Shown here: positions 10,804 through 58,196 of the stretch, one piece after another
Layout of the letters: the number at the start of each line of letters is the position of its first letter
Numbering within the stretch: the first letter of the stretch is position 1
Notes under the pieces: generated by a model
What the model was told of the DNA's origin: nothing
Database searches by the model: none
Seen by the model: only the letters and a program-made list of their open reading frames with translations
Assembly: GCA_964453205.1 (NCBI GenBank)
Contig: CAYVRC010000005.1
Coordinates: forward strand, 12,421-76,420
Direction of reading: 5' to 3'
Length of the DNA stretch: 64,000 nt
From: an uncultured Pirellulaceae bacterium
GTDB lineage: Bacteria > Planctomycetota > Planctomycetia > Pirellulales > Pirellulaceae
Program-made: the position numbers and the translations under genes

Positions 10804-10818
10804 CGCTTTCGCTTTCGT

Positions 10819-13005
10819 TCAATGGTTGGTGACAAATTCATTGCAGGTCACGATGCCCCAGACGAAGTCTTCCAGCAAGTCTCGCGTCGCCAGGGCATTC
10901 GAACAGGTGTCGATTTCGCTTTGCCAATACTCCCGTTCGTCATCATCGGGTTTTCGACAAAACGCGGCGACGTAGAAATCTTCCACGATCCGAATCGGCG
11001 GCGTCCCGGCGGCCAACAAGCGATCCAACCGTCCGCCTTTGGCGCCCAATCGCGGATTGAGCAGACCGCCGTTGAACAGGTGCAACTTTTGCGGCAAGCC
11101 GCCGCCTGTCGTCACGACCGACTCACACGAGACCTCGCGATCGCACCTGCCCAAGATGTCCAAAGACGTCGACGGCGTTCGAGGGTTGACGATCGCGACG
11201 GCCCGGGTCCCCGTCGCGGTTTCGCCGTATTTTTCGGCGGTTCCCAACACGTCGCTGATCGCGTCTGCCAGGACTTCCGGTTGCAAGGGCCGGCGGATCG
11301 CGTGGGAATAAAAGCGGTCGTCGTCCTTGTTTTTCGGTGTCGCCTTCGAACGGCGGGCATAAGCGTCGCTCAACGCGATCGTCTTCAACGTGTGCCGAAA
11401 ACGATAACCGTGGTCGGCAAAATCGTCGGCCAGTCGCCGCAGCAGGTCGGGGTGCGTGGCCGGATTGGTCGCCCGAAAATCGTCCACCGGTTCGACCAGT
11501 CCCCGGCCCATCATTTGTTTCCACAACCGATTGACGATGGCCGGGGCGAAGTAAGCATTGTCGTCGCCGGTCAGCCACTCGGTGAACACCCGCAGTTCGT
11601 CGTCGTCGCCCGTGTCCAAAAACCGCTCCCCGGGAAGCCGCGGGACGGCGGGTTCCAAGGTGGCCGGGTGAATCACCTCGCCCGTCGGCTTCGGGCCGAC
11701 CACCCGACCGGTTTCGATCTTGGCAAAGATCGCCGCCATGCCGTGGTAGTCGTCCTGGGTCCAACGGTCCAGCGGGTGGTTATGGCAATTCGCACATCGC
11801 AGCCGGCTGCCCATGAACAGTTCGCTGACGAACTCGGTCTGTTCCTGAGCATTCTTGGTCGTGCGATGAAAATTGGCGGGTCCGTCGTGATGAGAATCTC
11901 CCGTCGACAACAACAGACGCCTGACCATCCGGTCGAAACCGACGCCTTGGGAAATCTGTTGCGCGAACCAGTCGTGGTACACCCCCATGCCCACGACGTC
12001 GTCGACCAACGGTCGAACGCGAAACAGCTTGGCAAGCTGCAGCGTCCAGTACTCATCAAACTCCGATGAGTCCAGCAGTTCGTCGACCAACAGCTCGCGT
12101 CGGTCTTCGTCCTTCGTGTTTTTAGTTAAGAATTCATTGACCCGTTTCGGCGTCGGCAATCGGCCGGTCAAATCCAAAGTCACACGTCGGATGAACGCGG
12201 AATCGTCGATCGTGTCGGATGTCGGCAACGCCAACTTTTGCAACTTTGCCGCGATTTCGCGGTCGATGAAACTGCCTGAACTCGTTTCCGCCGGCGCGAT
12301 TTCGTCGTCGTTGATGGGCACGATCAATTCGATCGGCACGACTCGGTCCAAGTACCTCGCCACGACGATGTGGCGGCCACGTCGCAAGACTCGCGCGACC
12401 GCAGTCTTCGTGTCGATCTTGACCGACGATTCATCTTCGGCGGTGAACACGGTCCATCGCGTGACGTCGCGGGTTTGTCCGTCGGTGTAGTGAGCGATCG
12501 CGTTCAACCGGATCGGCCGGCCGACGGCCTTCGTGACGGAGTCGGCCGGCGTGATGTCGACACGTTCTAGCCGCAGTCGTGAATCGCTGCGGGTGCCCTG
12601 CCGAATCCAAGCGAGTATCTTTTGGGCGTGTTCGTCGTCGGCATCGATCAACTGCCCGCCGCCGTGTTCGAGCTGTTCGCTGGGTTTCAAGATCAGCAAG
12701 CTGTCCTCGGGACGCGCCAAGTTGATTCGGCGGCCCTGCAAATGCCGGGTGACGGCTTCAAAGTCCTTCGCGGGATTTCCCCCGTACAGCGAGAGCTTGA
12801 ACCCGCCACGGCCGAGCGCCGCCCCGTGGCAAGCCCCCGCGTTGCACCCGAGTTTGGTGAACACGGGGATCAAATCGTGTTTGAAATCGACACGAGAATT
12901 TTCGTCAGCCTTGGACGCGGAAACACCGATCGAAAAGCCGATCAGGCACAAGCACCCGGCGAGTCGAAGGCGAAGCCGCCGGTCGTTAGAATGTGAAAAT
13001 GGCAT
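10819..13005 (-). CDS. DUF1549/DUF1553 (PSD1-type) protein with Ig-like middle domain
   Basis: The start is trimmed to MPFSHSNDRRLRLRLAGCLCLIGF (ATG 13005). Motifs are NAGACHGAALGRGGFKLSLYG, RCANCHNHPLDRWTQDDYHGMAAIFA and LPQKLHLFNG. It lies 15 nt upstream of its usual DUF1501 partner. Confidence 0.85.
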   Translation of the reverse strand: MPFSHSNDRRLRLRLAGCLCLIGFSIGVSASKADENSRVDFKHDLIPVFTKLGCNAGACHGAALGRGGFKLSLYGGNPAKDFEAVTRHLQGRRINLARPEDSLLILKPSEQLEHGGGQLIDADDEHAQKILAWIRQGTRSDSRLRLERVDITPADSVTKAVGRPIRLNAIAHYTDGQTRDVTRWTVFTAEDESSVKIDTKTAVARVLRRGRHIVVARYLDRVVPIELIVPINDDEIAPAETSSGSFIDREIAAKLQKLALPTSDTIDDSAFIRRVTLDLTGRLPTPKRVNEFLTKNTKDEDRRELLVDELLDSSEFDEYWTLQLAKLFRVRPLVDDVVGMGVYHDWFAQQISQGVGFDRMVRRLLLSTGDSHHDGPANFHRTTKNAQEQTEFVSELFMGSRLRCANCHNHPLDRWTQDDYHGMAAIFAKIETGRVVGPKPTGEVIHPATLEPAVPRLPGERFLDTGDDDELRVFTEWLTGDDNAYFAPAIVNRLWKQMMGRGLVEPVDDFRATNPATHPDLLRRLADDFADHGYRFRHTLKTIALSDAYARRSKATPKNKDDDRFYSHAIRRPLQPEVLADAISDVLGTAEKYGETATGTRAVAIVNPRTPSTSLDILGRCDREVSCESVVTTGGGLPQKLHLFNGGLLNPRLGAKGGRLDRLLAAGTPPIRIVEDFYVAAFCRKPDDDEREYWQSEIDTCSNALATRDLLEDFVWGIVTCNEFVTNH

Positions 13006-13190
13006 CAAGTCGACGGTCGTGTTTTTCCGGCGGAGCGGCTTTTCGCGAACAGGGCGACGGTTTTCGCCTACAGGACGACGGCCCCCCTTTCCAATGTACC
13101 CGATGACCGACATGAATCGGTCCCCGGTTGCTAAACTCGCGCGGAAATGTTGCGTCCTCCGCACCCCCTTTCTTGGATTCGATCTTCGCC

Positions 13191-14612
13191 ATGCCCAGAA
13201 CATTCATTTGCTCCTTGTCGTTGGTCGGCTTGGCACTTTTTTCGATCACGGGCCGGCCGCTCGCGGCTCAGGAAGCCGCCATCGGGACAGCCGAGCCGGA
13301 CGCCGCCACCGTATTCTTGATCCCCGAAACCGATGAAGGCTTGCCCGGTGCCGGACCGATTCGCCGCTACGACTGGATGAAGCGAACTTGGCAGCTCCGC
13401 CGATCCACGTTCGCGTCGCGCGCCACGCGTGACCGACAAGCGGTCGTGTTCCTGGGCGATTCGATCACGCAAGGCTGGGGCGAGTCCTTTCAAGACGACT
13501 TCGCGGGCATGAAAGTCGCCAATCGTGGCATCAGCGGCGATACGACTCGCGGCATGCTGATTCGGTTGCAAGCAGACGTCTTGAACCTGAATCCGGCCGC
13601 CGTCGTGATGTTGATGGGCACCAACGACTTGGAAGAAGCGGCCGAGCCGCCCGTGATCGCCGGCAATGTCAAGTTGATCCTCGAAACGATGAAGCAACAC
13701 GATCCCGACATGCCGATCGTCTTGTGTCAGGTCATGCCGAGTAGTGCCGCCAAGAAACGATCCTCCGAAGACATCCGGATGCTCAATGAATGGCTGGCCG
13801 ATGTCGTTCGCGGTGATTCGCAAGTCACCCTGGTCGATACTTGGACGCTGTTTGCGAACGCCGACGGCGACGCAAAGAAGGAGGAGTTTCCCGACCTGCT
13901 GCATCCCAACCGTGCCGGCTACTTGAAATGGAAGGCGGCCTTGCTGCCCGTCTTTGCCACGCTGGGTTTCGTCGAAACCCGTGCCGACGACTTTCAAGTG
14001 GAACCGGGATTCGAAAGTCTGTTCAACGGCACGGACTTGACCGGATGGGAGTACCGCCCGACACCCGACGCGATGCGTTCTTCACGTGAGCGATGGATGT
14101 CACGCAAGCCGAAAGGCATCGTCTGGCCGTTGGTCGAGAAACGGGTCTCACTTGAGGGAAAATCCTCGACGCCGGATGGTCGGTACGTCGCCAAGGCCGG
14201 ACGCCTGGTCGTCACCACGCCCCCGGAAGGCCGCAAGATTCAACAGCTTTGGACGACGCGTGATTTCGACGGCGACTTCACGCTACGACTCGAATTTCGG
14301 GCAACACCGAACGCGGACAGCGGCGTTTTTCTTCGCGGGACTCAGTTGCAGTGCCGGGACTTTGCCTTGGCCGGGCCGTACAAGGATTTAAAGGACTATC
14401 GACCGCAACAATGGAACGAACTGGAAGTCGTCGTTTCGGGCAACGTCGCGCGGTGTAGCTGCAACGGTGAAGTCATCGAAGCAGCCTTCGAGTTACCCGA
14501 CACCGGACCGATCGGATTGGAAGGCGATCGGGGTCAAATGGAGTATCGCCGCATTCGTACCACGGCCATCGCACCGGAAAGGCCCGAAGGGCCGACAGCT
14601 CCCTGCCGGTGA
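13191..14612 (+). CDS. SGNH/GDSL hydrolase fused to a DUF1080 (3-keto-disaccharide hydrolase-like, LamG-fold) domain
   Basis: The signal peptide is MPRTFICSLSLVGLALFSITG. SGNH blocks are VVFLGDSITQGWG, GISGDTT, MGTNDL and DLLHPN. The DUF1080-type C-terminus follows: FESLFNGTDLTGWEY...GVFLRG...GPIGLEGDRGQMEYRRIR. Confidence 0.8.
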   Translation: MPRTFICSLSLVGLALFSITGRPLAAQEAAIGTAEPDAATVFLIPETDEGLPGAGPIRRYDWMKRTWQLRRSTFASRATRDRQAVVFLGDSITQGWGESFQDDFAGMKVANRGISGDTTRGMLIRLQADVLNLNPAAVVMLMGTNDLEEAAEPPVIAGNVKLILETMKQHDPDMPIVLCQVMPSSAAKKRSSEDIRMLNEWLADVVRGDSQVTLVDTWTLFANADGDAKKEEFPDLLHPNRAGYLKWKAALLPVFATLGFVETRADDFQVEPGFESLFNGTDLTGWEYRPTPDAMRSSRERWMSRKPKGIVWPLVEKRVSLEGKSSTPDGRYVAKAGRLVVTTPPEGRKIQQLWTTRDFDGDFTLRLEFRATPNADSGVFLRGTQLQCRDFALAGPYKDLKDYRPQQWNELEVVVSGNVARCSCNGEVIEAAFELPDTGPIGLEGDRGQMEYRRIRTTAIAPERPEGPTAPCR

Positions 14613-15562: not shown

Positions 15563-16114
15563 TCAGTTCATCGCGTTGGCTCGGGCGTTGTAAATCTTCG
15601 TCGCCTGAATCGTGACCAAATTCATGGCTTCGTCGAACCGACAGTGGCCGGTGACGGTGACCCGATCGCCTTTGGTCAGTCCGAACAATTCGTCCGCCGG
15701 GGTAGAAATCAGTTCGCCGTCATCGCCGCGAAACTCCACCATCGCCTTGGTCGCTTTCTCCGCCCTGCGTTTGCAGAACGGACAGTTGTCGGCATGATCC
15801 AAGGTGCCGTCGCCGTGCGTCGGATCGGGAAGCTCCGACATCAAAAAGACAGCGGAGTCCGTCTGAAACGGATCGTGTTCGCCGGCGTAGATGACGCCTT
15901 GGACGACGCACTCGTTCGTGTCGGAATCCGCATCGGTCTTGGTGCCGGCGAGTCGTTCGACGACGGCCGCGATCGAGACCGCATCGTCGGGAGCCGACCG
16001 GCCGAGAAACGCCACCGCCGCCGTGTCGGCGGAGGGCGATCGCGTGGTCACGTCGTCGCCACAGCCCGCGGCGAACAACACGATCGGGCCGAGAAAAGAA
16101 ACAGGCCATTTCAT
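15563..16114 (-). CDS. hypothetical lipoprotein with Cys/His cluster
   Basis: It has a lipobox (MKWPVSFLGPIVLFAAGC) and the cluster DPTHGDGTLDHADNCPFCKRR. I do not recognise a family. Coding-like third-position GC supports a real gene. Confidence 0.6.
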   Translation of the reverse strand: MKWPVSFLGPIVLFAAGCGDDVTTRSPSADTAAVAFLGRSAPDDAVSIAAVVERLAGTKTDADSDTNECVVQGVIYAGEHDPFQTDSAVFLMSELPDPTHGDGTLDHADNCPFCKRRAEKATKAMVEFRGDDGELISTPADELFGLTKGDRVTVTGHCRFDEAMNLVTIQATKIYNARANAMN

Positions 16115-16155
16115 CGTTGCAGGTTCCTTTGAGGGGGGATCTTTGCCGGAAAGCG

Positions 16156-16704
16156 TTATTCCGTCGACGCTTGCAGGGTCTTCATGGCCGCATCGATGTC
16201 GTCCTTGACTTCATCGTAATCTTTGCCGGGTTCGCCGTGCAATTTTTCGTCGATCGCACCGAAGGCATCGAACAGCTGATCGACCGCAGCCAAGCTGTCT
16301 TCGCTTTGCTCGGACTTCTTGGCCAGCTGTTCGACGTTTTCCAAAGCGTTGCCGACGTCGTGCAGTTCGTCATGAACGGAATCGACGTCGTCGTCGGCAA
16401 GCCCCGCGGTGATCCTCGTCACCATCCCGGCCAGTTGCTCCACGGCTTCGGCATAGGTCGCCGGCATCGGTGGCCCGCCGGCCGGGGGCAGCGTGTCGAC
16501 GTCCAAGCCCAACTCGTCGGCCTTGATCGTGTCGTGCTCATGCCCGTCGTGGTCATGCCCGTCATGATCGTGATCGTGATCGTCATGATGTTCTCCGTGA
16601 TCGTCGTGCGACGCGTCGCTGGTCACGGTGTCTGTGGGGCCGCCGCAGCCGATGGTCAGCAGAGCGGTCAACAGCAAAGCGATGGGGGTGAAATGTTTGG
16701 CCAT
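16156..16704 (-). CDS. His/Asp-rich lipoprotein (putative periplasmic metal-binding protein)
   Basis: The start is trimmed to MAKHFTPIALLLTALLTIGC (lipobox; ATG 16704). It has the tract SHDDHGEHHDDHDHDHDGHDHDGHEHD followed by an acidic helical C-terminus. Confidence 0.65.
   Translation of the reverse strand: MAKHFTPIALLLTALLTIGCGGPTDTVTSDASHDDHGEHHDDHDHDHDGHDHDGHEHDTIKADELGLDVDTLPPAGGPPMPATYAEAVEQLAGMVTRITAGLADDDVDSVHDELHDVGNALENVEQLAKKSEQSEDSLAAVDQLFDAFGAIDEKLHGEPGKDYDEVKDDIDAAMKTLQASTE
16531..16608 (-). repeat. low-complexity (gat/cat/cgt)n coding microsatellite for the His-Asp tract
   Basis: The + strand reads ...catgcccgtcgtggtcatgcccgtcatgatcgtgatcgtgatcgtcatgatg..., with short direct repeats of gtcatgcccgtc and gatcgt units. 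Confidence 0.7.
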
Positions 16705-16753
16705 GGGAAAATCGATTGGCGAAAGGGAAATGAAGGAACGGATTTCGTCGGAG

Positions 16754-17734
16754 CTAATCATTTTGATGCTGTTCGACGACGGAGTCGATGATCGCATCCA
16801 GGTCACGGGTGGGCCGGTAACCGATCGTGTCTTTGATACGAGTCAGATCGGGAACACGACGACGTATGTCTTCGAATGACTCATCATAGGCGTCCCCGTA
16901 AGTTTGAAACAGGATTTCTGATTTTGATTTCGTGCGTTCGATCACGCGTCGCGCCAAATCCAAGATCGATACCGGCGTGTCGCTACCAATGTTGTATACC
17001 CGGCCTGCGGCGGTGGGGGTTTCGGTCAACTGGACGACCGCCCCGATGACATCGGACACGTGGGCGAAGCAGCGGACTTGCAGCCCGTCGTCGTGCACGA
17101 CCAGCGGATCCCCTTTCAAGGCGGCTTCAACGAAGCGCGGCAAGACCATTCCGTAGGCGCCCGTCTGGCGTGGGCCGACCACGTTAAAAAAGCGACCGAC
17201 GACGACGGGCAGGCCTTGCTCCTTGAAATGCGCGAGCGCCAGAAATTCATCGATCGCCTTGGAGACGCCGTAGCTCCAACGCGGCCGCGTCGTCGCGCCG
17301 AAGACCAGGTCGTCTTCTTCCGTCCAGGTCGACTTCGGATTTTTGCCGTAGACCTCACTGGTGCTGGCGATGAAACAGGGGATCTTGCGGCCCCGTTTGG
17401 CGATCGATCCCAAGCGGTCCAAGATCAACTGAGTCGGATAGACGTTCCGTTCGATCGTCTGGATGGGTTGGCTGGCGATGAGAGCGACGCCGACGGCGGC
17501 GGCCAAGTGATAAACGCGATCGGCGCGGCCGACCAACTCGGCGACCAGCGCGACGTCGTCGATGCTGCCGCGGACGTTTTCCAGTCGCTCGTGCCCAGAA
17601 ATCTCGGCCAGATTCTGCGGCCGGCCGGTCGACAAATCGTCCACGACAATCACGTGGTCCCCGCGGCCCAACAGAAATTCGGCCAAGTGGGAGCCGATGA
17701 AGCCCGAACCGCCGGTGATCAGAGAAGTCGTCAT
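16754..17734 (-). CDS. NAD-dependent sugar-nucleotide epimerase/dehydratase (UDP-glucuronate decarboxylase-like SDR)
   Basis: The start is trimmed to MTTSLITGGSGFIGSHLAEFLL (ATG 17734). It has a Rossmann GxxGxxG motif and the catalytic YGVSKAIDE (YxxxK). Confidence 0.85.
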   Translation of the reverse strand: MTTSLITGGSGFIGSHLAEFLLGRGDHVIVVDDLSTGRPQNLAEISGHERLENVRGSIDDVALVAELVGRADRVYHLAAAVGVALIASQPIQTIERNVYPTQLILDRLGSIAKRGRKIPCFIASTSEVYGKNPKSTWTEEDDLVFGATTRPRWSYGVSKAIDEFLALAHFKEQGLPVVVGRFFNVVGPRQTGAYGMVLPRFVEAALKGDPLVVHDDGLQVRCFAHVSDVIGAVVQLTETPTAAGRVYNIGSDTPVSILDLARRVIERTKSKSEILFQTYGDAYDESFEDIRRRVPDLTRIKDTIGYRPTRDLDAIIDSVVEQHQND

Positions 17735-18149
17735 GTGCGGTCGGGAGAATACGGAGTTCAGGGAAAACAGGGGGAAAGGTTCCATCCAGCCTCATTCGGG
17801 TGCGGACGCTTTCCGACAAGTCTGCTGGTACGCAGCAAGTCGCCCAATCGTTTGATCGCAGCCCGAGTGGCCGAATAATGATGATCTTCTCGCCCTCCAA
17901 TCGATTTGGCTAGGCCGAGATGGGACCGGCCCGGCCCGCCGGGGGCGACCGTGCCTGCCGTCGTGGACCTGGCCGCTGAACCGTGAATCGGTCGTTGCCA
18001 AGGCGACCCCGGCGACGGTCGTTGTCCCGTGAAGGCGGGGGGCTCGCCTCGTTGAGCTACCGAGGATTTTGGTCGACCGTTAGACTAACGGGGGTCCGTT
18101 CGCGGTCTTTGGTCTGTCCTTGTGCGCCCGCCGTCTTTTCGAATTCACC

Positions 18150-21100
18150 ATGCGTCGATTTGCTTTCTTGCCGCTGTTGCTGATTGTCGTCGTCGATTCG
18201 TTCGTCGTCTCGCCGACCGTCTCGTGGGGACAACGAGGATCGCGCGAGCGGGTTCGCACGGAAGCCGATTTGGAAGCCGAAAAGAAAGCCGAACGGGCCA
18301 TGGCGGCCTACGCCGACGCGGCCAACTTTCAAACCGGCGGCGCGATCGCGCTGGCCATCGAAGCTTGGCAAGCTTTTCTGAAAGATTATCCCGATCACGA
18401 GATGGCTTCGCAGGCCGCCCACTATTTGGGCGTCTGTTACATGCAGCAAAATCAGCCCGATTACGCCGCCGCCGCGAATTCGTTCGCCACGGCGCTCCGG
18501 GACGATGATTACGAACTTCGCGAGGAAAGCTTAGCCAATTACGGATGGTGTTTGTACGCCGACGCGGGCCAAGCGCCCGACCGAGACGCCCGACGACTGC
18601 GATCGGCCATCAAAGTGTTTCAGACGCTTCGCAAAGAGTTTCCCGAAAGTGATTTTCTGGACCGCGCGTATTTTTATACCGGCGAGGCCTACTACGGACT
18701 GGGCGACGCCGCCCGCGCCGTCCAAGCCTACGACGCGATGCTGGCCGCTGAACAAGCCGCCGAGTCTCCGCTCCGGTGCGACGCTTTGTACGCGCGTGGC
18801 GTCGCGCTGGAGGAATTGAAAGAATTCGAAAAGGCGAAAGCCTCGTTCGGTCAGTTGCTGCAAAGCTGTGCCGGCGACGACTTGGCCACCGACGTGCACC
18901 TGCGGATGGGGGACCTGGCGATCCTGAACCGCGGCTATGCCGACGCGATCGAATCGTTCGGACAAGCCTTCGACACGGCTGATCAACAGGAGGACCAGGC
19001 TTATGCCCTGTTTCGCCAGGCCTTCGCCTTTGTGAAATCGGAACAACCCGAACGCGCGACCGAAAATTACGAAAAACTGCTGGCCGCTTTTCCCGACAGT
19101 CGGTACGCCGCGTCGGCGACGCTGGCTTCCGCGCAGAACGCCTACCGCAGCGGCGACATGGACATGGCCGCCGAACGTTTCGAACAGGTCTTGACGCGAA
19201 ACAATCCCGAGGCGGCGACCGAAGCGGCGCATTGGCTGGCCCGGATCCGATTGAGCCAGGGGGATCCGACTGCCGCCCTCCGCGTCGCCGAAGGCCAAGT
19301 CGAAAAGGGCGCCGAGGGCGAATTCGCCACCGCGCTGCGTTTGGACTTGGCCGAGGCCTACGCGGCCGATCCGAAGACGGTCCCCGACGGCTTCGAACTG
19401 TTCAAAAAGATTCACCAGGATTCGCCGAACGACCCGTTGGCACCACGGGCGCTGTACAACGCGGCCTTTTTCGCTTTGCAGCTCGGCCGGCCCGACGAAG
19501 CGGCGAAGCTGTCCGATACTTTTGAAAATCAGTATTCCGACGACGCCTTGTTCGGCGACGTCGGGTTCATCGGGGCCGAGGCGGAATTGGCCGCCGGGAA
19601 CGTCCAGGCGGCTGCCCGTCGCTACGAAAAGCTGATCGCCGACACCAGCCTCGACGACAACCCGCAGAGACCGTTGTGGATCCTCCGCGGCGGGGCGACC
19701 TTGCAACGCGCCGGACGACCCGATGCGGCGATCGAAATGTTGCAAAGTCAGTCGGCGTCTTTGGCCCGGTCGGCCCAACAAGCGGAAGCCGAGTTGTTGA
19801 TCGGACAAGCGCACCTGGCCGCCGGTCGCGCCGCCCAAGCCGCCGGTGCTTTTCGCAAAAGCCGACAGACCGACGACGACTGGGCGAGGGCCGGCGAAGC
19901 CGCGTTGTTAGAAGGAACGGCGCTTCGCAACGACGGTCAAATCGATCAGGCGACCCGAGTTTGGACCGCGTTGGCCGACCGCGACGGCTCGGACCGGATG
20001 GCCGATCAGGCCCGATTCAAACTCGGCCAGCTGGCGGCCGAACAAGGGGATCACGCCCGGGCCGTCGAACAGTTCACCGCGATCTTGCGGTCCGGTCGCG
20101 ACCCCGGGCTGATTCCTTACGCGACCTACGGCAAGGCCCGCGCGGAAATCGCGAAACAAGATTTTCAGGCCGCCACCGAAACCTTGGGCCCGTGGTTGAA
20201 AGCGACCGAAACGCACCCGTTGAAAAACGAAGCGATGATGGCGCAAGGAATCGCGTTGCGAAACCTGGACGACTTGGCAGCGGCCGATGACGTGTTTAGC
20301 GAGGCACTGGCCGGCGATCCCCGCGGTGCTGTGCTGGCGGGGCTGTTGTACGAATCGGCCCTGGTCGACGTCGAACAAGAAAACGAAGACGCCGCGATCC
20401 GAAAACTACGCCGCGTCATCAAAGAAGTGCCGGGATATCGCGAGATGGACAAGGTCGCCTACGAACTGGGCTGGACGCTTCGCGAGGCGGGTCAAGAAGA
20501 TCAGGCCGAAAAACAGTTTCGCCAATTCTTGAAAGACTTTGCCGACAGTCCCGACGTCGCCGAGGCGGCTTATTTCGTCGCCCAACGTGAATACGGGCGG
20601 GAGAATTGGGTCGAGGCGGCGAAGCATTACGAACTGGCCGCGGATCGAGCCACGGAAACGGATCTGTCCGAAAAGGCGTTGTACCGAACGGGTTGGGCAC
20701 GGTTCAAAGCCGATGAATTGGAGGCTTCCGAATCGGCGTTCCGACGTCAGGCCGAGGAACACCCCGACGGTCGGTTACTCATGGACGCGTTGATGATGAT
20801 CGGGGAGTCCAGTTTCAAGGCCAAGGAGTACGCCCGGGCCATCGAAAGCTATTCTCGGGCACGGACCCGTATTCGACAAAACGGAGAAGACTCCCGGTCG
20901 CTGAAGGACGCCGCGGAACGGCAAGTCCGTGAGCTGATCCTGCTGCACGGCGGACAGAGCGCCGCGTTGCTAAAGAAATGGGACGAAGCGTTGGGATGGT
21001 ACGGCGAACTCCGCCAACGATTCCCCAACTCGGCGTATCTCGCCCAAGTCTTTTATGAGACCGCGTACGTGCATCAGCAATCCGGCGACCCGGAGGAAGC

Positions 21101-21467
21101 GCTGAAGTTCTACGGCCAAGTCGCTCAGAAGTATCGCAACAGCGTCGCGGCGAGGTCCCGATTCATGATGGGCGAGATCTATTTCGATCGAAAGCAATAC
21201 GATCAAGCGATCACCGAATTTCAACGGGTGATGTTCGGCTTCGGTGCCGACAAAGCGCCCGCGTCGGTGAAGACGTGGCAAGCCAAAAGCGGATATGAAG
21301 CGGCGCGGTGTAGCGAACAACTGATGCAACAAGCCAAAACCGGCGCGGCGGAGAACCAAGCCAAAGAGTTTGCGGTGAAGTTCTACAGTTACGTCATTGA
21401 AAAACACCCCGGCGATGAACTGGCGGGCAAAGCAGCCGACCGACTGAAGGTGCTGAAATCATCATGA
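18150..21467 (+). CDS. large exported TPR-repeat protein
   Basis: The signal peptide is MRRFAFLPLLLIVVV. About 1100 aa of degenerate TPR-like helical repeats follow (e.g. AAHYLGVCYMQQNQPDYAAAANSFATAL, YFYTGEAYYGLGDAARAVQAYDAML). The stop overlaps the ATG of exbB (ATGA 21464-21467). Confidence 0.8.
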   Translation: MRRFAFLPLLLIVVVDSFVVSPTVSWGQRGSRERVRTEADLEAEKKAERAMAAYADAANFQTGGAIALAIEAWQAFLKDYPDHEMASQAAHYLGVCYMQQNQPDYAAAANSFATALRDDDYELREESLANYGWCLYADAGQAPDRDARRLRSAIKVFQTLRKEFPESDFLDRAYFYTGEAYYGLGDAARAVQAYDAMLAAEQAAESPLRCDALYARGVALEELKEFEKAKASFGQLLQSCAGDDLATDVHLRMGDLAILNRGYADAIESFGQAFDTADQQEDQAYALFRQAFAFVKSEQPERATENYEKLLAAFPDSRYAASATLASAQNAYRSGDMDMAAERFEQVLTRNNPEAATEAAHWLARIRLSQGDPTAALRVAEGQVEKGAEGEFATALRLDLAEAYAADPKTVPDGFELFKKIHQDSPNDPLAPRALYNAAFFALQLGRPDEAAKLSDTFENQYSDDALFGDVGFIGAEAELAAGNVQAAARRYEKLIADTSLDDNPQRPLWILRGGATLQRAGRPDAAIEMLQSQSASLARSAQQAEAELLIGQAHLAAGRAAQAAGAFRKSRQTDDDWARAGEAALLEGTALRNDGQIDQATRVWTALADRDGSDRMADQARFKLGQLAAEQGDHARAVEQFTAILRSGRDPGLIPYATYGKARAEIAKQDFQAATETLGPWLKATETHPLKNEAMMAQGIALRNLDDLAAADDVFSEALAGDPRGAVLAGLLYESALVDVEQENEDAAIRKLRRVIKEVPGYREMDKVAYELGWTLREAGQEDQAEKQFRQFLKDFADSPDVAEAAYFVAQREYGRENWVEAAKHYELAADRATETDLSEKALYRTGWARFKADELEASESAFRRQAEEHPDGRLLMDALMMIGESSFKAKEYARAIESYSRARTRIRQNGEDSRSLKDAAERQVRELILLHGGQSAALLKKWDEALGWYGELRQRFPNSAYLAQVFYETAYVHQQSGDPEEALKFYGQVAQKYRNSVAARSRFMMGEIYFDRKQYDQAITEFQRVMFGFGADKAPASVKTWQAKSGYEAARCSEQLMQQAKTGAAENQAKEFAVKFYSYVIEKHPGDELAGKAADRLKVLKSS

Positions 21468-22447
21468 AGCCAGATTCCTTTCGTATCCCGGTCGCTTGGG
21501 CCGCCGTCGTCGCGGTGACCATCGTCTGGCTCGCCCAGGTGACACCCCCGACGGCCCACGGTCAGGCGTCCGAGACCCCGATCGCCGACGCGGCGGACAT
21601 CCGGTCCGTCATGAGCGACGCTCCGGCGCAAACGCCCGGTCAGGTCGACGCGCCGAGCGGGATCGATCTGTTGTCACTGATCCTTCGCGGCGGCATGTTC
21701 ATGATCCCCATCGGGTTGATGAGTTTGTTGGTGGTGACGTTGGCGGTCGAACGTCTGTTGGTGTTGCGATCTAAAAGAATCGTTCCTCGACGCTTGTCAC
21801 GCGAATTACGTGGACAAGCCGCCGACCCGGTTCGGTTCAACCCGACCACGGCTTTTCTGACATGCGACGAGTATCCGTCGGCGGCCGCTCGAGTGATCAA
21901 GGCGATGTTGATGCGGACGGGCGGCTCGCTCGGCGAAATCGAACGGGCGGCAAGCGAAACGGCCCAACGAGAAGCCGATCGCTACGCCGCGCCGATCCGT
22001 TGGTTGAATCTGGCGGCCGCGGCGACCCCGTTGATGGGCTTGCTGGGGACGGTCTGGGGAATGATCGTCGCGTTTCATGAATCGACCACGTTGACGCCCG
22101 ATCGGAGTCGCAGTGAACAGTTGTCCGAGGGCATTTACACGGCCTTGGTAACGACGTTGGCGGGTCTGGTGGTGGCGATTCCGGCCGCGATCCTGGCGCA
22201 GTACTTGGAAAACAGGGTCACCAAGTTGTTCGGCCGCGTCGAACAATTGGCGTTCGACGTCGCACCCGGATTGACGCGGTTTGTCGGCAACAGCCGTTTG
22301 CAGCGTGACGGATCGTTGCACCCGAGCATCGTCGCGGACCGTCCTCGACGCGGCGATCGCGACGTCGCGCCGCCTCCGGTGGATGACGCCCCGCCGCCGG
22401 CCGGCGAAAAAACCAAACGGACTCGCGACGGCATCCAGACCAGGTGA
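21464..22447 (+). CDS. exbB: MotA/TolQ/ExbB-family proton-channel protein
   Basis: Motifs are GGMFMIPIGLMSLLVVTLAVERL and TPLMGLLGTVWGMIVAF...LSEGIYTALVTTLAGLVVAIPAAILAQYLENR. The C-terminal tail is Pro/Arg-rich. Confidence 0.88.
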   Translation: MKPDSFRIPVAWAAVVAVTIVWLAQVTPPTAHGQASETPIADAADIRSVMSDAPAQTPGQVDAPSGIDLLSLILRGGMFMIPIGLMSLLVVTLAVERLLVLRSKRIVPRRLSRELRGQAADPVRFNPTTAFLTCDEYPSAAARVIKAMLMRTGGSLGEIERAASETAQREADRYAAPIRWLNLAAAATPLMGLLGTVWGMIVAFHESTTLTPDRSRSEQLSEGIYTALVTTLAGLVVAIPAAILAQYLENRVTKLFGRVEQLAFDVAPGLTRFVGNSRLQRDGSLHPSIVADRPRRGDRDVAPPPVDDAPPPAGEKTKRTRDGIQTR

Positions 22448-22875
22448 TTCCGATGGCTGTTCACATCAAAAAGTCGACGGTCGCCGGGACGCTCAGTCTG
22501 ACGCCATTGATCGATGTCGTGTTTTTGTTGCTGATCTTCTTTTTGGTCACCAGCGAGTTCGAAGACGAGGAACGTCGTTTGGATATCGTGTTGCCGACCG
22601 CGACCAGTGCGGCACCGATGACCAGTCGCCCGCGTGAGATCGTGATCGACGTCGACGCGGAAGGTGCGGTCTATCTGCGTGGGCGAATCACGGACCTGGA
22701 GGAACTGGAAAGATTGTTGTCCGCCGCCGTGGCTGACAATCCGGCCGACCAGTCTGTCGTCATCCGCGCCGATCGCGACGCCACGTTTCAACCGGTCGTC
22801 AGCGTGATGGACGTTTGCAACCGTACCGGAATATCGGATTACAGCGTGACCACCAAAGAAGGACCGCAGGGTTGA
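22444..22875 (+). CDS. exbD: ExbD/TolR-family biopolymer transport protein
   Basis: Motifs are LTPLIDVVFLLLIFFLVTSEF and IVIDVDAEGAVYLRGRITDLEELERLL...VVIRADRDATFQPVVSVMDVC. The GTG start overlaps the exbB stop (GTGA 22444-22447). Confidence 0.88.
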   Translation: MIPMAVHIKKSTVAGTLSLTPLIDVVFLLLIFFLVTSEFEDEERRLDIVLPTATSAAPMTSRPREIVIDVDAEGAVYLRGRITDLEELERLLSAAVADNPADQSVVIRADRDATFQPVVSVMDVCNRTGISDYSVTTKEGPQG

Positions 22876-25631
22876 TCGACGACGACCGTTTCGACCAAGA
22901 CGCCTGGGACGAACACGCATCGGATCGGATGTGGCCGCTGGATTTGGCGTTGGTCGCCGCGGCGGGGTTGGTATTGGCGATCATTTTTACCCGTTTCCGC
23001 TTCGACGATCCGCATTGGTTGTACAACGCCTGGACTTACGTGATCGCGGTGCCGGTGATCACGTTGGCTCTCGCGTTGTTGCTGCGAAACCTTGTCAGTC
23101 AAAACGTCCAAAAGTCGATCCAGTTGGGATTCTTGACCAGTGTTTTCGTTCACCTGACGTTGCTGTTGGTTGCGGTGCGTTGGGTGATTTTTCCGGCGTA
23201 CTTTCCCGAGGCTTTCATGGGCGTCAAGGCGGAACGGAAACCGATCCGCAAGACGGTTCCGGAGTACGTCTTTGAAGCACCGACCGAATCGACCGTCGCG
23301 CCGGACTGGGCCAAACCGGTCGACGCGGAAACGGCTTCGCGGGTCTTGCCGGAGCAGCCGCGACGGCTGCCGCCCCAGGACGAAGTCGCCACGAAGATCG
23401 AGATGCCTCAGCCCGAGTTGCCCAGCGATCCGATGGAGCAAGCGTTTTTGAAACTTCGCGAGGATCCGGCCCAGTCTCAACCCCGGCCCGCCGACGAGCC
23501 GGCGAAACTGGCCCGACAGCCGACCCGCCCTCCGCAGCCGGACCCGTCGCTGTTGGACAACCCGATCGCACCGGAAACCGCATCGGCACAGTCGACGCCC
23601 AGCGACGCTGCCGCGCCCGAACGGTCGACCGAGACCTCGTTGCCCGGCCGGGATCGGTTGCGATCCATGCCCGCGGCGGATTCGTTGGCCGCGCTCGCCG
23701 ATCTCGCTCCCGAACCGGTTCCCGCGGCCGGCGGACGACCGTCGCCGCGGATGTCGCTTCGCCAAGACAGCGCCTTGCCGTCGGTTTCGGACCGGAGCGT
23801 CGTGCGATCGCGGGATCGGCGACGCAGCGAAAACGGACCGGTCGGCGTGACGCCGTCGGCACCGACGGTCGCGATCGCGATCGAAAGGGCGGACGATTCA
23901 CGTCGACTATCGCCACAGCCGTTGCCGTCCGCCGAATCGTCGGAATCACGCTTGCAGCGTTCGGCGATGTCGTCGCTTGCCGAGCTGCCCGACGTGCTGC
24001 CCGGCCGACCGCTGTTGGCCGCCGACGACGCCACGCCGTCGTCGCTGCTCCGCGATCCGCGGGGCAGTGACCGGTTGCCAGACCTGACCGACGCCGGCCC
24101 GCGACAACCGACGCGGCCGTCGACGCGGCGAGCCGAGCTGGGCATGGGTGCGGTGGGGACAAAGATCAAGATTCCCGGCATGGCGGTCGCCGATGCGTCG
24201 GCGGCCGCCGGCGGTGACGAAGCCGCACGGGCGGACATCCCCCGTGACCGCGTCGGCCGGCAAAGCGAGTCGACCCGAACGAACAACGCCCCGGACCGGT
24301 CGGCCGCTTTTGCCGCGTCGCAGCCGATCGCGATCCCGTCGGACGTGATGGCACCGCTGGGACCGGCCGGGCTGTCGCGTCGCGGGTCGGATTCCCCGGG
24401 CGTGATCCGTGACGACGACCGACCGCGTGTCGCCGCGCTGGATTTGAAGTCGTTGCCGCGGCCCCGTCGCGACGTGGGCGGTCCGGTGACGCCGGCCGGT
24501 AGCCAAGTCACCGCGGTCCAGCCCTTCAACCGACGGGCGATGCGCACCGAAGCCGGCGCGGCGCCCGCGCCGGCCGGTATGGTCGGGCCGGCCACCGAGG
24601 AAGCGATCGAGTTGGGCTTGGCTTATCTGTCCGAGCTCCAGAACGACGACGGAAGCTGGTCGCTGCAGGGTCACGGTGGCGACGTGATCTTGAAAAGTGA
24701 TACCGCGGCAACGGGCATGTGCCTGTTGGCTTTTCAAGGTGCCGGTTACACGCACAAGCAACATCGCTATGCCGGCGTGGTGGCCAAGGGGTTGCAGTTT
24801 TTGCGCAGCATCCAACGGACCAACGGCGATCTGTTTCGCCCCGAGGACAGCATCAGCAACCGCAACGTCGCCTTGTACAGCCACGGGATCGCGGCGTTGG
24901 CGATGAGCGAAGCGTTCGGAATGACTCAAGATCCGGAATTACGTGAGCCCGCGCAGCTTGCCTTGGATTACATCGTCGCGACACAGCATCGACGTCGCGG
25001 CGGCTGGCGATACACGCCACAAATTAGCGCCGATACCAGCGTGACCGGCTGGATGATGATGGCGCTCAAGAGCGGCGAATTGGCCGGCCTGGACGTCGAA
25101 CCGTCGGCTTACCAAGGCATCGAACGTTGGCTGGACTTTGCCCGCGAAAGCCCGGATCGGGAAGACCGATATCGTTACGACCCTTTCGCGCCCGACACGC
25201 CGACGCAGCGTCACGGCCGCTTCGTCACGCCGACGATGACATCGGTCGGGATGCTGATGCGAATGTACCTGGGTTGGCGACGCGACCGCCCCGAAATGCA
25301 ATCGGCGGCCGAGTACTTGTTGCAGTATCCGCCGGAGATCGGCACGCCGACATCGCCACAACGGGATACCTACTACTGGTACTACGCGACACAGGTGATG
25401 TTCCACATGGGCGGCGATCATTGGGAACGCTGGAACCGTTCCCTGAACCCAGTCTTGCTGAACGGTCAGATCAAACGTGGGCCCGACACCGGCAGCTGGG
25501 ATCCCGATTCGCCCGTCCCCGATCGCTGGGCACCTCATGCCGGACGTTTGTATGTGACGGCAATGAACTTACTGAACTTGGAAGTCTATTACCGGCACCT
25601 GCCGATCTACGACGACGCCGCCGCCGATTGA
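22872..25631 (+). CDS. membrane-anchored protein: 3 N-terminal TM segments, ~450-aa Pro/Ala/Ser/Arg-rich linker, C-terminal prenyltransferase/terpene-cyclase-like alpha/alpha-toroid domain
   Basis: TM segments are WPLDLALVAAAGLVLAIIFT, WTYVIAVPVITLALALLL and LGFLTSVFVHLTLLLVAVRWVIF. The linker is low-complexity (PQPELPSDP, RPADEPAKLARQPTRPPQPDPSLLDNPIAPE...). The C-terminus (from ~24590) has LAYLSELQNDDGSWSL, ATGMCLLAFQGAGY, IVATQHRRRGGWRY and SVTGWMMMALK, which resemble QW/prenyltransferase repeats. The start is uncertain: TTG 22872 overlaps the exbD stop (TTGA); the alternatives are ATG 22815 or ATG 22929. Confidence 0.75.
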   Translation: MIDDDRFDQDAWDEHASDRMWPLDLALVAAAGLVLAIIFTRFRFDDPHWLYNAWTYVIAVPVITLALALLLRNLVSQNVQKSIQLGFLTSVFVHLTLLLVAVRWVIFPAYFPEAFMGVKAERKPIRKTVPEYVFEAPTESTVAPDWAKPVDAETASRVLPEQPRRLPPQDEVATKIEMPQPELPSDPMEQAFLKLREDPAQSQPRPADEPAKLARQPTRPPQPDPSLLDNPIAPETASAQSTPSDAAAPERSTETSLPGRDRLRSMPAADSLAALADLAPEPVPAAGGRPSPRMSLRQDSALPSVSDRSVVRSRDRRRSENGPVGVTPSAPTVAIAIERADDSRRLSPQPLPSAESSESRLQRSAMSSLAELPDVLPGRPLLAADDATPSSLLRDPRGSDRLPDLTDAGPRQPTRPSTRRAELGMGAVGTKIKIPGMAVADASAAAGGDEAARADIPRDRVGRQSESTRTNNAPDRSAAFAASQPIAIPSDVMAPLGPAGLSRRGSDSPGVIRDDDRPRVAALDLKSLPRPRRDVGGPVTPAGSQVTAVQPFNRRAMRTEAGAAPAPAGMVGPATEEAIELGLAYLSELQNDDGSWSLQGHGGDVILKSDTAATGMCLLAFQGAGYTHKQHRYAGVVAKGLQFLRSIQRTNGDLFRPEDSISNRNVALYSHGIAALAMSEAFGMTQDPELREPAQLALDYIVATQHRRRGGWRYTPQISADTSVTGWMMMALKSGELAGLDVEPSAYQGIERWLDFARESPDREDRYRYDPFAPDTPTQRHGRFVTPTMTSVGMLMRMYLGWRRDRPEMQSAAEYLLQYPPEIGTPTSPQRDTYYWYYATQVMFHMGGDHWERWNRSLNPVLLNGQIKRGPDTGSWDPDSPVPDRWAPHAGRLYVTAMNLLNLEVYYRHLPIYDDAAAD

Positions 25632-25708
25632 CGAAATGTGGTATACCCGTGCCTGAGTGAATCGCTGGAAGGTCGGCGAAGGGTCGTCAGGATCGCGTCG
25701 TCGCGGTG

Positions 25709-26794
25709 ATGACCGTTTCTTTGGACACTAATCTTGAGAGCCCCATGCTGCCGCTAATCGCGTTTCTGTTCGGGTTGTTGCTTTACGCCGGCACTCGCGT
25801 CTTGATCGGATGTTTGTACACCGTCGCGCCGGACCAACGTGCCGTCGTGACCAGTTTCGGAGCCGCCCAGACGATCCCCGGCATGCCCTACGCGTCGGCC
25901 GAAATGGAAGACGACGCCCCGCTGAGCGAAGACGAACGGGAGCGTTACGAATATCCCAACGTCGATGTGATCGGACCCGGCGGACCCTATTTTAAAATGC
26001 CTTGGCAAAAGGTTCACAAGGTCAGCGTCGCCACGCAGGCCGTCGACCTGTCCTGGGATCCGACGAAAGCCCAAAACACCATCGAAGCGGTCACCAAGGA
26101 CAACTTGACCACGGGCGTCAACGGTCAACTCCGTTACCGCGTCAGCGAAAACAACCTTTATCCGTTCTTGTTCGGCGTCAGCAGTCCGCTGGAACACGTG
26201 ATGGGCTTTTTCGTCTCCGTCTTGCGAGAACGGATCGCCAACTTTGTCGATCCCAAAGGCCAAAGCTTGCTGACCGATCAGGAGCTTTCCGACGACGTGG
26301 CGGGTGACGGTCAGACGATCCCGGCCAGCACCAGTGCCGTCGAACTATCCGAAGGCGTCAGCATCAACGACCTGCGAAAGAACCTGCCGCTGCTGAATCA
26401 GTACATGGAGGAGCAGTGTCGATCGACCACCGGCCGATACGGCATCGAACTGGACGCCGCGTTGATCACGGAAATCGATCCCCCGGCCGAAGTCGATCGG
26501 GCTTTGTCCGCGATCAACAGCACGCGAAACCAAGTCGCCGCCGACATCAGCACCGCACGGGCCGACGCCGAACAACAAATCACGATGAGTGCCCGCGCGG
26601 TCGAAATCGCCACCAACAACGCACAAGCCGAAGTCGCGCCGCTAGAAGAACTGGCCGCGACCCTGGCGGCGATCAAGAAAGAAGGCGGATCGGCTTGCCT
26701 GCAGGCTTATCTCCGCAACGCCCGCGTGCCCCTGTTCAAACGTGCCGGGCGTGTCGTGCACACGATGGGCGGCGTCGCCAAAGGAGCCAACTGA
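25709..26794 (+). CDS. SPFH/Band-7 (stomatin/HflK-C-like) membrane protein
   Basis: It has an N-terminal TM (LPLIAFLFGLLLYAGTRVLIG), then YTVAPDQRAVVTSFG, an SPFH core (IEAVTKDNLTTGVNGQLRYRV; GIELDAALITEIDPPAEVDRAL) and a coiled-coil tail. The start could be GTG 25706, ATG 25709 or ATG 25745. Confidence 0.8.
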   Translation: MTVSLDTNLESPMLPLIAFLFGLLLYAGTRVLIGCLYTVAPDQRAVVTSFGAAQTIPGMPYASAEMEDDAPLSEDERERYEYPNVDVIGPGGPYFKMPWQKVHKVSVATQAVDLSWDPTKAQNTIEAVTKDNLTTGVNGQLRYRVSENNLYPFLFGVSSPLEHVMGFFVSVLRERIANFVDPKGQSLLTDQELSDDVAGDGQTIPASTSAVELSEGVSINDLRKNLPLLNQYMEEQCRSTTGRYGIELDAALITEIDPPAEVDRALSAINSTRNQVAADISTARADAEQQITMSARAVEIATNNAQAEVAPLEELAATLAAIKKEGGSACLQAYLRNARVPLFKRAGRVVHTMGGVAKGAN

Positions 26795-27675
26795 TGTTGT
26801 CGATTTTTTCTTTTGTCGCCGGATTTCTGTTGATCCCGATCCTCCTGGGTTTGGCACGTGCCTTTGGCATCTACACCTGCGTGGAAGAATGTCAGGCCCA
26901 GGTCTTCACGCTGTTCGGCAAAGTCATCGGTACGATCGACATCGCCGGATTGCACTTTCCGATCGCGTACTTCGGCCCCCGGGCTTTGCTGATCCCGTTC
27001 TTCGGCAAACGTTACGTCGTCAGCACGGCGCTCCGCCAACACTATTTGCGCAGCCAAATGGTCAATAGCGAGGAAGGAACGCCGATGGGCGTGGGCATCT
27101 GGTACGAGATGCAGGTGAAGGATCCCGTCGCGTATTTGTTCATCAACGCCAATCCCGACGGATCATTGCAGGCCAACGTGACCAGTTCGACGATCAGCAC
27201 GCTCAGTAATCTGGAAATGGAAAAGATGCTGGAAGATCGTCACAGCCTCAGCCGGACGGTCCGCCAAGCCGTCTCGCCGCTGTCAGAAAAATGGGGCTAC
27301 CGGTTGGGCAGTGTCTACATTCGCAAAGTCGAATTCACGGACATCCAAATGGTCCAAAACATCACGGAAAAAGTCGTCAAACGATTGGTGCAAGTCACCA
27401 GCGCGATGAAACAAGACGGTGAAAACCGGGTCGGCCTGATCTTCAGCGAGACCGCCTACAAGGTGTCACAAAAGATGGCCGAAGCCTCCGCCGCGCGGCC
27501 GGACATCGTCGGCAAAAAACTGAACGAAATCGCCAAACGGGACCCGGAAATATTGGACACCCTGTTGGAAGTCATGGAGATCGAGAACCTGCTGGCCTCC
27601 GACGCCAAAGTCGACATGCTGCCCGGCAGCAGCAATCTGCTGATTCAATTGGGCGGATCGTCCAAATCCCAGTAG
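26794..27675 (+). CDS. SPFH/Band-7 membrane protein (second paralog)
   Basis: The start is MLSIFSFVAGFLLIPILLGLA, and its ATG overlaps the preceding stop (TGATG 26792-26796). Motifs are CQAQVFTLFGKVIG, SPLSEKWGYRLGSVYIRKVEF and a helical tail. The track ORF 26416..27675 carries a spurious 5' extension. Confidence 0.8.
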   Translation: MLSIFSFVAGFLLIPILLGLARAFGIYTCVEECQAQVFTLFGKVIGTIDIAGLHFPIAYFGPRALLIPFFGKRYVVSTALRQHYLRSQMVNSEEGTPMGVGIWYEMQVKDPVAYLFINANPDGSLQANVTSSTISTLSNLEMEKMLEDRHSLSRTVRQAVSPLSEKWGYRLGSVYIRKVEFTDIQMVQNITEKVVKRLVQVTSAMKQDGENRVGLIFSETAYKVSQKMAEASAARPDIVGKKLNEIAKRDPEILDTLLEVMEIENLLASDAKVDMLPGSSNLLIQLGGSSKSQ

Positions 27676-50127: not shown

Positions 50128-50144
50128 CGCCTTGGGAACCCAAC

Positions 50145-54335: not shown

Positions 54336-54542
54336 ACGTGTATTCACAACATAGGATTCGCGAAACTCGGTTCCGGGCGAGCGAACGCAAACGCGAAACC
54401 ACGCCAAAACACGATTGTGCTCAAAGTGATGTTTCGACATCTCAGTAAGCAAAGATCAATGTAACCGGTCCTAGCAAGCCAGGCTCGAACGCCCCCTGCA
54501 AGAACAAAACAAGAAGATTCGCTTTTAAAGTTTTTTGAAATC

Positions 54543-58163: not shown

Positions 58164-58196
58164 GTCCACAGAAAAGGTCTAGACGGAACCACTCTC

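Follow-up and report, generated by a model that had tools for sequence, protein, structure and literature searches.

An operon of an uncultured Pirellulaceae bacterium encodes an ExbB/ExbD-like motor together with a putative force transducer that ends in a predicted toroid

This report concerns a four-gene operon in DNA from an uncultured Pirellulaceae bacterium (GenBank assembly GCA_964453205.1, contig CAYVRC010000005.1, positions 12,421 to 76,420 of the forward strand). The window, by which we mean the whole stretch of 64,000 nucleotides that was analysed, carries the operon at 18150-25631 on the + strand, where four long same-strand open reading frames (ORFs) encode, in order, a tetratricopeptide repeat (TPR) protein, an ExbB-like protein, an ExbD-like protein and the product of gene 4, which is the protein of principal interest here (Table 1). 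An earlier reading of the bare sequence, referred to below as the original prediction, had proposed that this is a proton-motive-force motor whose transducer carries a toroid as its output domain. Its claim that the four genes are chained by overlapping stop and start codons was borne out, as the overlaps can be read directly as ATGA (21464-21467), GTGA (22444-22447) and TTGA (22872-22875). Alternative starts are present for exbD at an in-frame ATG (22453) and for gene 4 at ATG 22929 (MWPLD...), the latter being the start used by several homologues; whichever starts are right, the spacing of the four genes is no more than 60 bases. The length of 938 residues originally given for gene 4 had to be corrected, because that ORF runs from a TTG at 22815 that lies inside exbD; read from TTG 22872, the product has 919 residues and is identical to database protein P0001. 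Scans for promoters and terminators gave matches at a frequency not above that in shuffled sequence.

The TPR protein begins with a Sec-type signal peptide, MRRFAFLPLLLIVVVDSFVVSPTVSWG, in which a lipobox Cys is not present, and it is predicted to be periplasmic. It matched many TPR families of Pfam, the YbgF/CpoB-type TPR model TIGR02795 in 10 stretches and, repeatedly, the BamD-like model TIGR03302. The product of gene 2, which has a signal-peptide-like N-terminal extension, matched MotA_ExbB (PF01618, E 1.9e-24), and that of gene 3 matched ExbD (PF02472, E 7e-29). Among the NCBIfam models, TolQ (2.1e-15) and TolR (1.7e-17) matched the two motor subunits best, better than those for ExbB and ExbD; none of the curated equivalog cut-offs for TolQ, TolR, ExbB or ExbD was reached, the TolQ and TolR scores falling far below theirs, and the subunits are thus left without a subfamily assignment. 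Two segments of gene 2, GLLGTVWGM and ALVTTLAGLVVAIPA, align with the segments of Escherichia coli TolQ that hold Thr145, Thr178 and the proline of transmembrane (TM) helix 3, while TPLIDVVFLLLIFF of gene 3, which includes TPLIDVV and the TM Asp, aligns with E. coli TolR VPLLDVLLVLLLIF, the segment that holds Asp23. The Asp of TolR and the two Thr residues and Pro of TolQ are described as essential (2026 review, PMC12905483), and judged from these alignments all four are intact in genes 2 and 3. As a separate matter, we considered whether the genes might encode a defence system of the Zorya/MotAB type; PADLOC returned only marginal similarity of the ExbB to ZorA (E 0.003-0.008) and had no match for the three remaining proteins, and as it gave no support this reading was rejected.

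Table 1. Positions in the window of the operon genes and of the parts of the gene 4 protein (residue numbers count from the TTG start at 22872)
Feature	Position	Strand	Basis and remarks
Gene 1, TPR protein, 1105 aa	18150..21467	+	ATG start; TPR Pfam families
Gene 2, ExbB/TolQ-like proton-channel subunit, 327 aa	21464..22447	+	PF01618
Gene 3, ExbD/TolR-like subunit, 143 aa	22444..22875	+	PF02472; GTG 22444 start overlaps the exbB stop
Gene 4, putative force transducer, 919 aa	22872..25631	+	TTG start; 3-TM module, disordered linker and toroid
TM1 (aa 21-41) and TM2 (aa 53-75), hairpin	22932..23096	+	Hydropathy, AF2
TM3, anchor helix (aa 82-110), SIQLGFLTSVFVHLTLLLVAVRW	23115..23201	+	Ser90 at 23139-23141, His94 at 23151-23153
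Pro/Ala/Arg/Ser-rich disordered linker (aa 118-547)	23223..24512	+	pLDDT <50, no secondary structure (AF2)
IRKTVPEYV (aa 125-133), candidate D-box/motor box	23244..23270	+	Conservation island
WAKPVDAE (aa 146-153), second conserved island	23307-23330	+	Conservation island
C-terminal (alpha/alpha)6 toroid (aa 573-910)	24588..25601	+	At the very end of the gene 4 protein

The N-terminal part of the gene 4 protein had been predicted to contain three TM helices, and on this hydropathy and structure prediction agree. Hydrophobic segments were seen at residues 19-45, 52-77 and 82-111, and a full-length AlphaFold2 (AF2) model, built for the monomer on 42 homologues, has helices at residues 21-41, 53-75 and 82-110 with a predicted local distance difference test score (pLDDT) of ~80-89. 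TM1 and TM2 are joined by a short conserved loop, FDDPxWLYNAWTY (residues 44-58). TM3, which we term the anchor helix, has Arg and Lys ahead of it, as in TonB, and contains Ser90 and His94. When it was aligned with E. coli TonB and TolA (reference sequences taken from NC_000913), the Ser90-x3-His94 pair fell in the same register as S16/H20 of TonB and S18/H22 of TolA. Both residues are invariant in the 42 full-length homologues. In a set of 35 diverse anchors, 12-57% identical to that of the window, the His is the sole invariant column and a Ser stands four residues before it in 31, with Ala or Gly in the remainder. In the SHLS motif, Ser and His make up the contact hub with TM1 of ExbB/TolQ, and in TonB the Leu of this motif makes no contact (PMC12905483). 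From the shared register we infer that TM3 of gene 4 may dock on the motor in a similar manner. A profile of the anchor region, run against a large protein database, gave 3 short matches only and was uninformative on other head domains.

Beyond the anchor lies the long Pro/Ala/Ser/Arg-rich linker that had been noted at ~450 residues; we place it at residues 118-547, giving ~430 residues (P 14%, A 14%, R 11.5%, S 10%) that are predicted to be disordered. Its mean column conservation is 0.38 vs 0.78 for the toroid, and its length across the family ranges from 313 to 1673 residues (median 555) with both flanking ends conserved. No extra domains were found by Pfam in the long orthologues, which simply contain a longer linker. 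Two islands of conservation stand out near its start, of which the first, IRKTVPEYV, lies ~15 residues past the end of the helix; the (V/I/L)P(D/E)Y motif that it contains recurs at the membrane-proximal site in distant homologues. The D-box of TonB, through which the ExbD dimer is bound, lies 10-15 residues past the TM helix (PMC12905483), and by analogy the TVPEY stretch is a candidate D-box.

It can be seen that the C-terminal region is of a quite different type from that of TonB or TolA. Neither Pfam nor NCBIfam detected a TonB_C or TolA-III domain (PF03544, PF06519, PF13103) in gene 4, nor did Pfam detect a VWA domain. When the last 375 residues were modelled alone with AF2, an all-helical structure was obtained (pLDDT 92.2, predicted template modelling score 0.92). 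Searched against the PDB with Foldseek, this model matched (alpha/alpha)6 structures, with 8paj as the top match (together with 8pak, a single-domain squalene-hopene-cyclase-like protein; E 2.4e-8, TM-score 0.58-0.63), followed by the class II terpene cyclase MstE (6sbe), AprG, GH76 mannanases and AGE-family epimerases. TM-scores to 8paj, 8pak, 6sbe and 1sqc were 0.55-0.64, and the best matches had E-values of 2e-8 to 3e-6 with TM-scores of 0.57-0.64. The fold check thus confirmed, at the level of the model, the toroid that had been proposed. The further description of it as terpene-cyclase-like holds for the fold, but not beyond it. The only Pfam match of gene 4 is SQHop_cyclase_C (E 0.0087), at 15.6 bits vs a gathering threshold of 26.1. 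Among six orthologues scanned with the same family, four reached the threshold (27.3-32.7 bits) and two fell below it (22.1 and 23.2); orthologues also gave faint matches to the Pec_lyase and GlcNAc (N-acetylglucosamine) 2-epimerase families. Reading of residues 573-919 revealed no DxDD motif, the nearest motif at a helix start being ISADTS, and a phmmer search of the toroid against PDB sequences gave no match. As the fold match is generic and both the sequence match and the DxDD motif are missing, we do not read the toroid as a terpene cyclase. Its conserved positions are rich in aromatic residues, for example in DTYYWYY and GSWDP.

The original prediction had also placed the C-terminus of gene 4 outside the cytoplasm, and comparison with relatives supports this. 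Those that have a single TM helix, corresponding to the Ser-His helix only, have 3-6 Lys/Arg ahead of the anchor as against 1-3 behind it, which is the orientation of TonB. Another set of relatives (P0068 and P0071-73) has a signal-anchor helix (MSRR..., MIRRPGR...), then ~300 residues with PD40 (TolB-type) repeats, TM2 and the Ser-His helix, with RDRR or RWRR immediately ahead of the latter. PD40 is a type of domain that is normally extracytoplasmic, and in these relatives it occupies the site of the TM1-TM2 loop, where the window protein has only a conserved loop of 12 residues. This would give gene 4 an N-terminus inside the cell, loop 1 outside, loop 2 inside, and a periplasmic linker and toroid. 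P0072 and P0068, the latter with an additional CarboxypepD_reg domain, lie at L003 10001-13882 and L088 8001-11972. At the same loci a large Peptidase_M56 (BlaR1-like) protein of 912-1219 residues adjoins the TPR gene (L003 2183-5277, L088 1-3154), with a Penicillinase_R repressor as its partner in L003; this neighbour may represent a regulatory link.

Relatives of the toroid were sought in one genome per species, and were found in the genomes of at least 588 species. The best 80 of these at least 588 genomes are almost all Planctomycetia, from the Pirellulaceae, Lacipirellulaceae, Thermoguttaceae and Planctomycetaceae (including Fuerstiella). To be informative on gene order a locus had to have a complete 5' end and enough upstream DNA, and exbD was scored as adjacent if it lay no more than 600 bases upstream on the same strand. 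On this basis 58 of 66 loci have exbD directly upstream, often with a 4-base overlap; an adjacent exbB is present at 49 of 62, and an adjacent TPR gene at 44 of 56. The co-occurrence with exbBD that had been expected is therefore seen, distant lineages included: the gene order is the same in Crateriforma spongiae and in the PD40-type relatives, which are only 30% identical in the toroid, and a single-TM relative from a soil metagenome has exbB-exbD-gene 4. Clustering of all ORFs at the loci revealed no further conserved neighbour. The N-terminal module was analysed separately by searching its first 140 residues against 1.84 billion representative proteins, which gave 260 clusters at E <= 0.001. 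Among the matches listed, the proteins of at least 700 residues have the toroid at the end in 77 of 80 cases, with a median of one residue beyond it; of the three that lack it, one is a spurious repetitive match and two are without a Pfam domain. Taken with the range of linker lengths, this indicates that the N-terminal module and the toroid are essentially always coupled, with the length of the tether alone varying.

Some loci have features of their own. Shorter toroid proteins of 500-600 residues with no exbD upstream are encoded at L079 (9191-10987), L075 and L078; that of L079 keeps an S-x3-H helix (SCLVHFTLIVV), and these proteins may be orphan or differently partnered members of the family. 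At the C. spongiae locus (L001) a 929-residue protein without Pfam domains follows gene 4 directly, and a few kb downstream of the operon the opposite strand carries a second motor-like cluster (15733-20146), comprising a 454-residue MotA_ExbB protein and two proteins (674 and 339 residues) without Pfam domains.

ExbBD and TolQR motors are known to act through TonB or TolA. We consider it probable that gene 4 is a force transducer of the TonB/TolA class with a different head, which works with the motor encoded beside it; the fold, the co-occurrence with exbBD, the topology suggested by relatives and the additional finding of the Ser-x3-His core all support the proposal of a proton-motive-force motor with a toroid-headed transducer. 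In such a machine the ExbB-like protein would form a pentamer and the ExbD-like protein a dimer, giving a proton-driven 5:2 motor in the cytoplasmic membrane. With Ser90 and His94 as its contacts, TM3 of gene 4 would attach to the outer face of the ExbB ring, as TonB and TolA do, and the periplasmic dimer of ExbD would be bound by the membrane-proximal TVPEY stretch in the manner of the TonB D-box. The ~430-residue disordered, Pro-rich linker could then reach across the enlarged periplasm of planctomycetes (PMC5394234), so that the toroid might bind a ligand of the outer envelope, be it a protein, a glycan or a lipid, and proton flow would result in a pull on this ligand or in its displacement. 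For the secreted TPR protein, a role as scaffold or adaptor of this machine in the periplasm is probable; its binding to the tether is speculative.

Several observations weigh against this interpretation. The second half of the SHLS motif (x6-Leu-x3-Ser) is not kept in gene 4, where Ala101 and Val105 stand at those positions, Ala101 being nearly invariant across the family. Pairwise alignment revealed no obvious counterpart in this ExbB of the Ser and Trp in TolQ TM1 that are said to contact the SHLS motif. Searching a profile of the anchor region against PDB sequences gave no match, and for this reason we base the link to TonB and TolA on the register of the motif and its conservation. The AF2 monomer has no strand at the candidate D-box. 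Mean Lys+Arg counts for the 3-TM members (N-tail 1.6, loop 1 2.9, loop 2 1.9, post-TM3 1.5) are ambiguous, which is why the topology was judged from the single-TM and PD40-type relatives. Eight of the 66 loci lack an adjacent exbD, although two of the eight resemble frame problems, and a Pirellula/Blastopirellula subclade (L002, L023, L028, L030, L031 and L033) has exbD-gene 4 only; the 10 kb upstream contain neither exbB nor a TPR gene. (One member of this subclade, Blastopirellula marina at L030, is among the few Planctomycetia reported to have a TonB and one receptor; PMC3422733.) No gene for an outer-membrane partner was found among the neighbours of the operon and, finally, the toroid could be an enzyme rather than a grip.

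This last point leads to an explanation in which the genes are co-transcribed without being mechanically coupled. Gene 4 would then be a membrane-anchored periplasmic enzyme or binding protein for an isoprenoid or a glycan, the sharing of an operon with exbBD would be purely regulatory, and the His-containing helix would have another role. Toroids of this fold class are usually enzymes, homologues without an adjacent exbD exist (L017, L019, L075, L078 and L079), and the Leu and final Ser of SHLS are missing from gene 4. However, an invariant intramembrane His with a Ser four residues earlier is hard to explain in a passive anchor, and exbD is immediately adjacent, often overlapping, across very divergent lineages; these two features make an unrelated tethered enzyme unlikely. 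With no DxDD motif present, and with a disordered linker of 313-1673 residues, such as tethers rather than enzymes typically have, we regard this explanation as very unlikely.

Two other possibilities differ in what the machine would do. Transducer mechanism unchanged, the operon might be the planctomycete counterpart of Tol-Pal, in which the toroid replaces TolA domain III and the TPR protein replaces CpoB, and it would act in tethering or remodelling the outer membrane and the peptidoglycan, for instance in budding division. That the motor matches TolQ and TolR ahead of ExbB and ExbD would fit this, but the scores are far under the curated cut-offs; likewise the YbgF/CpoB model matches the TPR protein in its 10 stretches, but as generic TPR similarity over repeats. 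PD40 (TolB-type) repeats do occur within the same polypeptide in distant relatives, and related organisms are without TonB-dependent receptors (PMC3422733), yet no Pal-like or TolB-like gene is present in the window or conserved nearby. Transposon data for Planctopirus limnophila list ExbB/ExbD genes as non-essential (PMC10632474), although the orthologue of this operon could not be mapped there. On balance a Tol-Pal-like role seems rather doubtful to us. The other possibility is that the system energises uptake and replaces the route through TonB and its receptors, the toroid gripping a glycan or an outer-membrane channel and the motor pulling macromolecules such as polysaccharides into the enlarged periplasm. 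Entry of dextran and green fluorescent protein into the planctomycete periplasm is abolished by carbonyl cyanide m-chlorophenylhydrazone (CCCP), and the machinery responsible is not known (PMC5394234), though CCCP sensitivity does not single out this motor. Some of the fold matches are toroids that bind sugars (GH76 mannanases, AGE-family epimerases and AprG with GlcNAc), orthologues have the faint Pec_lyase and GlcNAc 2-epimerase matches, and aromatic residues are abundant at the conserved positions; against this, the fold matches are generic (TM-score ~0.6) and terpene cyclases match to the same degree. The reported absence of TonB and TonB-dependent receptors from related Planctomycetia (PMC3422733) would leave room for such a system, but no carbohydrate-active enzyme, porin or pilus gene is conserved beside the operon, and we think an uptake function unlikely. 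At its widest, the idea of a toroid-headed transducer could be extended to propose that the transducer and its motor are the main, phylum-specific coupling of the proton-motive force to the outer envelope in Planctomycetia, replacing both Ton and Tol, and that the toroid grips a glycan or an outer-membrane gate, reels macromolecules inward and so explains CCCP-sensitive polysaccharide uptake; this we would put forward only as a long shot.

The surroundings of the operon were also inspected. In agreement with the original prediction of no TonB-dependent receptor, Pal or TolB gene in the window, domain scans revealed no TonB_C, TonB-dependent receptor, Pal or TolB domain in any other ORF. Two SPFH/Band-7 genes follow at 25706-27675, the first starting 75 bases past gene 4; as the two mechanical ORFs overlap, the second gene probably starts after 26416. 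They are not conserved in the loci of other genomes. Elsewhere the window has the gene content usual for a planctomycete (PSCyt/PSD, DUF1501 and sulfatase genes), including the planctomycete-specific pairs PSCyt2/PSD1 + DUF1501 and PSD/PSCyt3 + DUF1552 (HXXSHH) at 9466-13203 and 43193-48012, which confirm the planctomycete origin of the window. At 49537-53525 a gene for an extracytoplasmic function (ECF) sigma factor is directly followed by one for a 1126-residue Ser/Thr kinase with WD40 propellers. The G+C content drops to 0.51-0.52 at 54000-58200, compared with ~0.60 elsewhere, and this stretch, which may be acquired DNA, contains a 1206-residue ORF (54543-58163) in which two dockerin type I matches are the sole Pfam domains.

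How gene 4 stands to TonB and TolA can be summarised as follows. Like them, it is encoded with an ExbB/TolQ-ExbD/TolR motor and has an anchor with Ser-x3-His in the same register and Arg/Lys on the cytoplasmic side, and a long Pro-rich, disordered linker that leads to a globular C-terminal head; the short conserved motif past the helix is a candidate for a counterpart of their D-box or R-box. Unlike them, it has two extra TM helices before the anchor, lacks the Leu and final Ser of SHLS, has a linker 3-15 times longer and no known TonB-box partner or TolB, and carries as its head an (alpha/alpha)6 toroid of ~340 residues in place of TonB_C or TolA-III, domains of ~90 residues that use beta-strand addition for binding. 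Gene 4 lacks the C-terminal domain that defines the TonB/TolA family and retains only half of SHLS, and strictly speaking it is not a member of that family. With the toroids of class II terpene cyclases and prenyltransferases (SQHop_cyclase_C; 8paj, 8pak and MstE 6sbe) it shares the fold and weak QW-repeat-like matches; it differs in having no DxDD, in being predicted to be periplasmic and in its place at the end of a tether, and toroids that act on sugars (GH76, AGE epimerases, AprG) match it equally well. The TPR protein resembles CpoB/YbgF and BamD-type proteins in that it is secreted, consists of TPRs and has its gene beside those of a TolQR-like motor, but compared with CpoB it is ~4 times longer (1105 residues), is first and not last in the operon and has no lipobox, the similarity being one of TPR repeats only.

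The operon probably represents a previously undescribed variant of the machinery by which energy passes from the inner membrane to the outer envelope. Hundreds of planctomycete species carry the conserved toroid type, and it is for members of this group that an absence of TonB and TonB-dependent receptors has been reported, namely for Rhodopirellula baltica and most other Planctomycetia (Speth et al., 2012; PMC3422733). If our interpretation of gene 4 as a transducer is correct, the Ser-His anchor with its disordered tether would be a portable module for unrelated heads, and the operon would be a concrete candidate for the energy-dependent processes of the planctomycete outer membrane (uptake, envelope maintenance, budding). 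It would further provide specific targets that can be tested in organisms with genetic tools, these being His94, the TVPEY motif and the ligand of the toroid.

Among the closest known systems are the vWA-headed transducers of the Planctomycetes-Verrucomicrobia-Chlamydiae (PVC) group, which are encoded in TPR-tolQ-tolR operons and have a vWA head joined to an SHLS helix by a disordered linker (Williams-Jones et al., 2025; PMC12204202). As these were published in 2025, the concept of a head other than that of TonB is less new than the original prediction had assumed. Gene 4 likewise has a TM helix with a His, a disordered linker and a non-TonB globular head, and it likewise lies downstream of TPR and tolQ/tolR-like genes in the same order. 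A toroid, prenyltransferase or squalene-cyclase head is not mentioned in that paper (PMC12204202), and literature searches that combined ExbD with such head terms found no description of the toroid type. The vWA heads constitute a third type of transducer beside TonB and TolA (PMC12204202), and the toroid of ~340 residues on its very long tether would be a further type of head. What would be new relative to the vWA transducers is the head itself, which has a toroid and not a vWA fold, the module of three TM helices, a much longer tether (several hundred residues vs ~100) and the single exbD/tolR-like gene in place of a heterologous pair.

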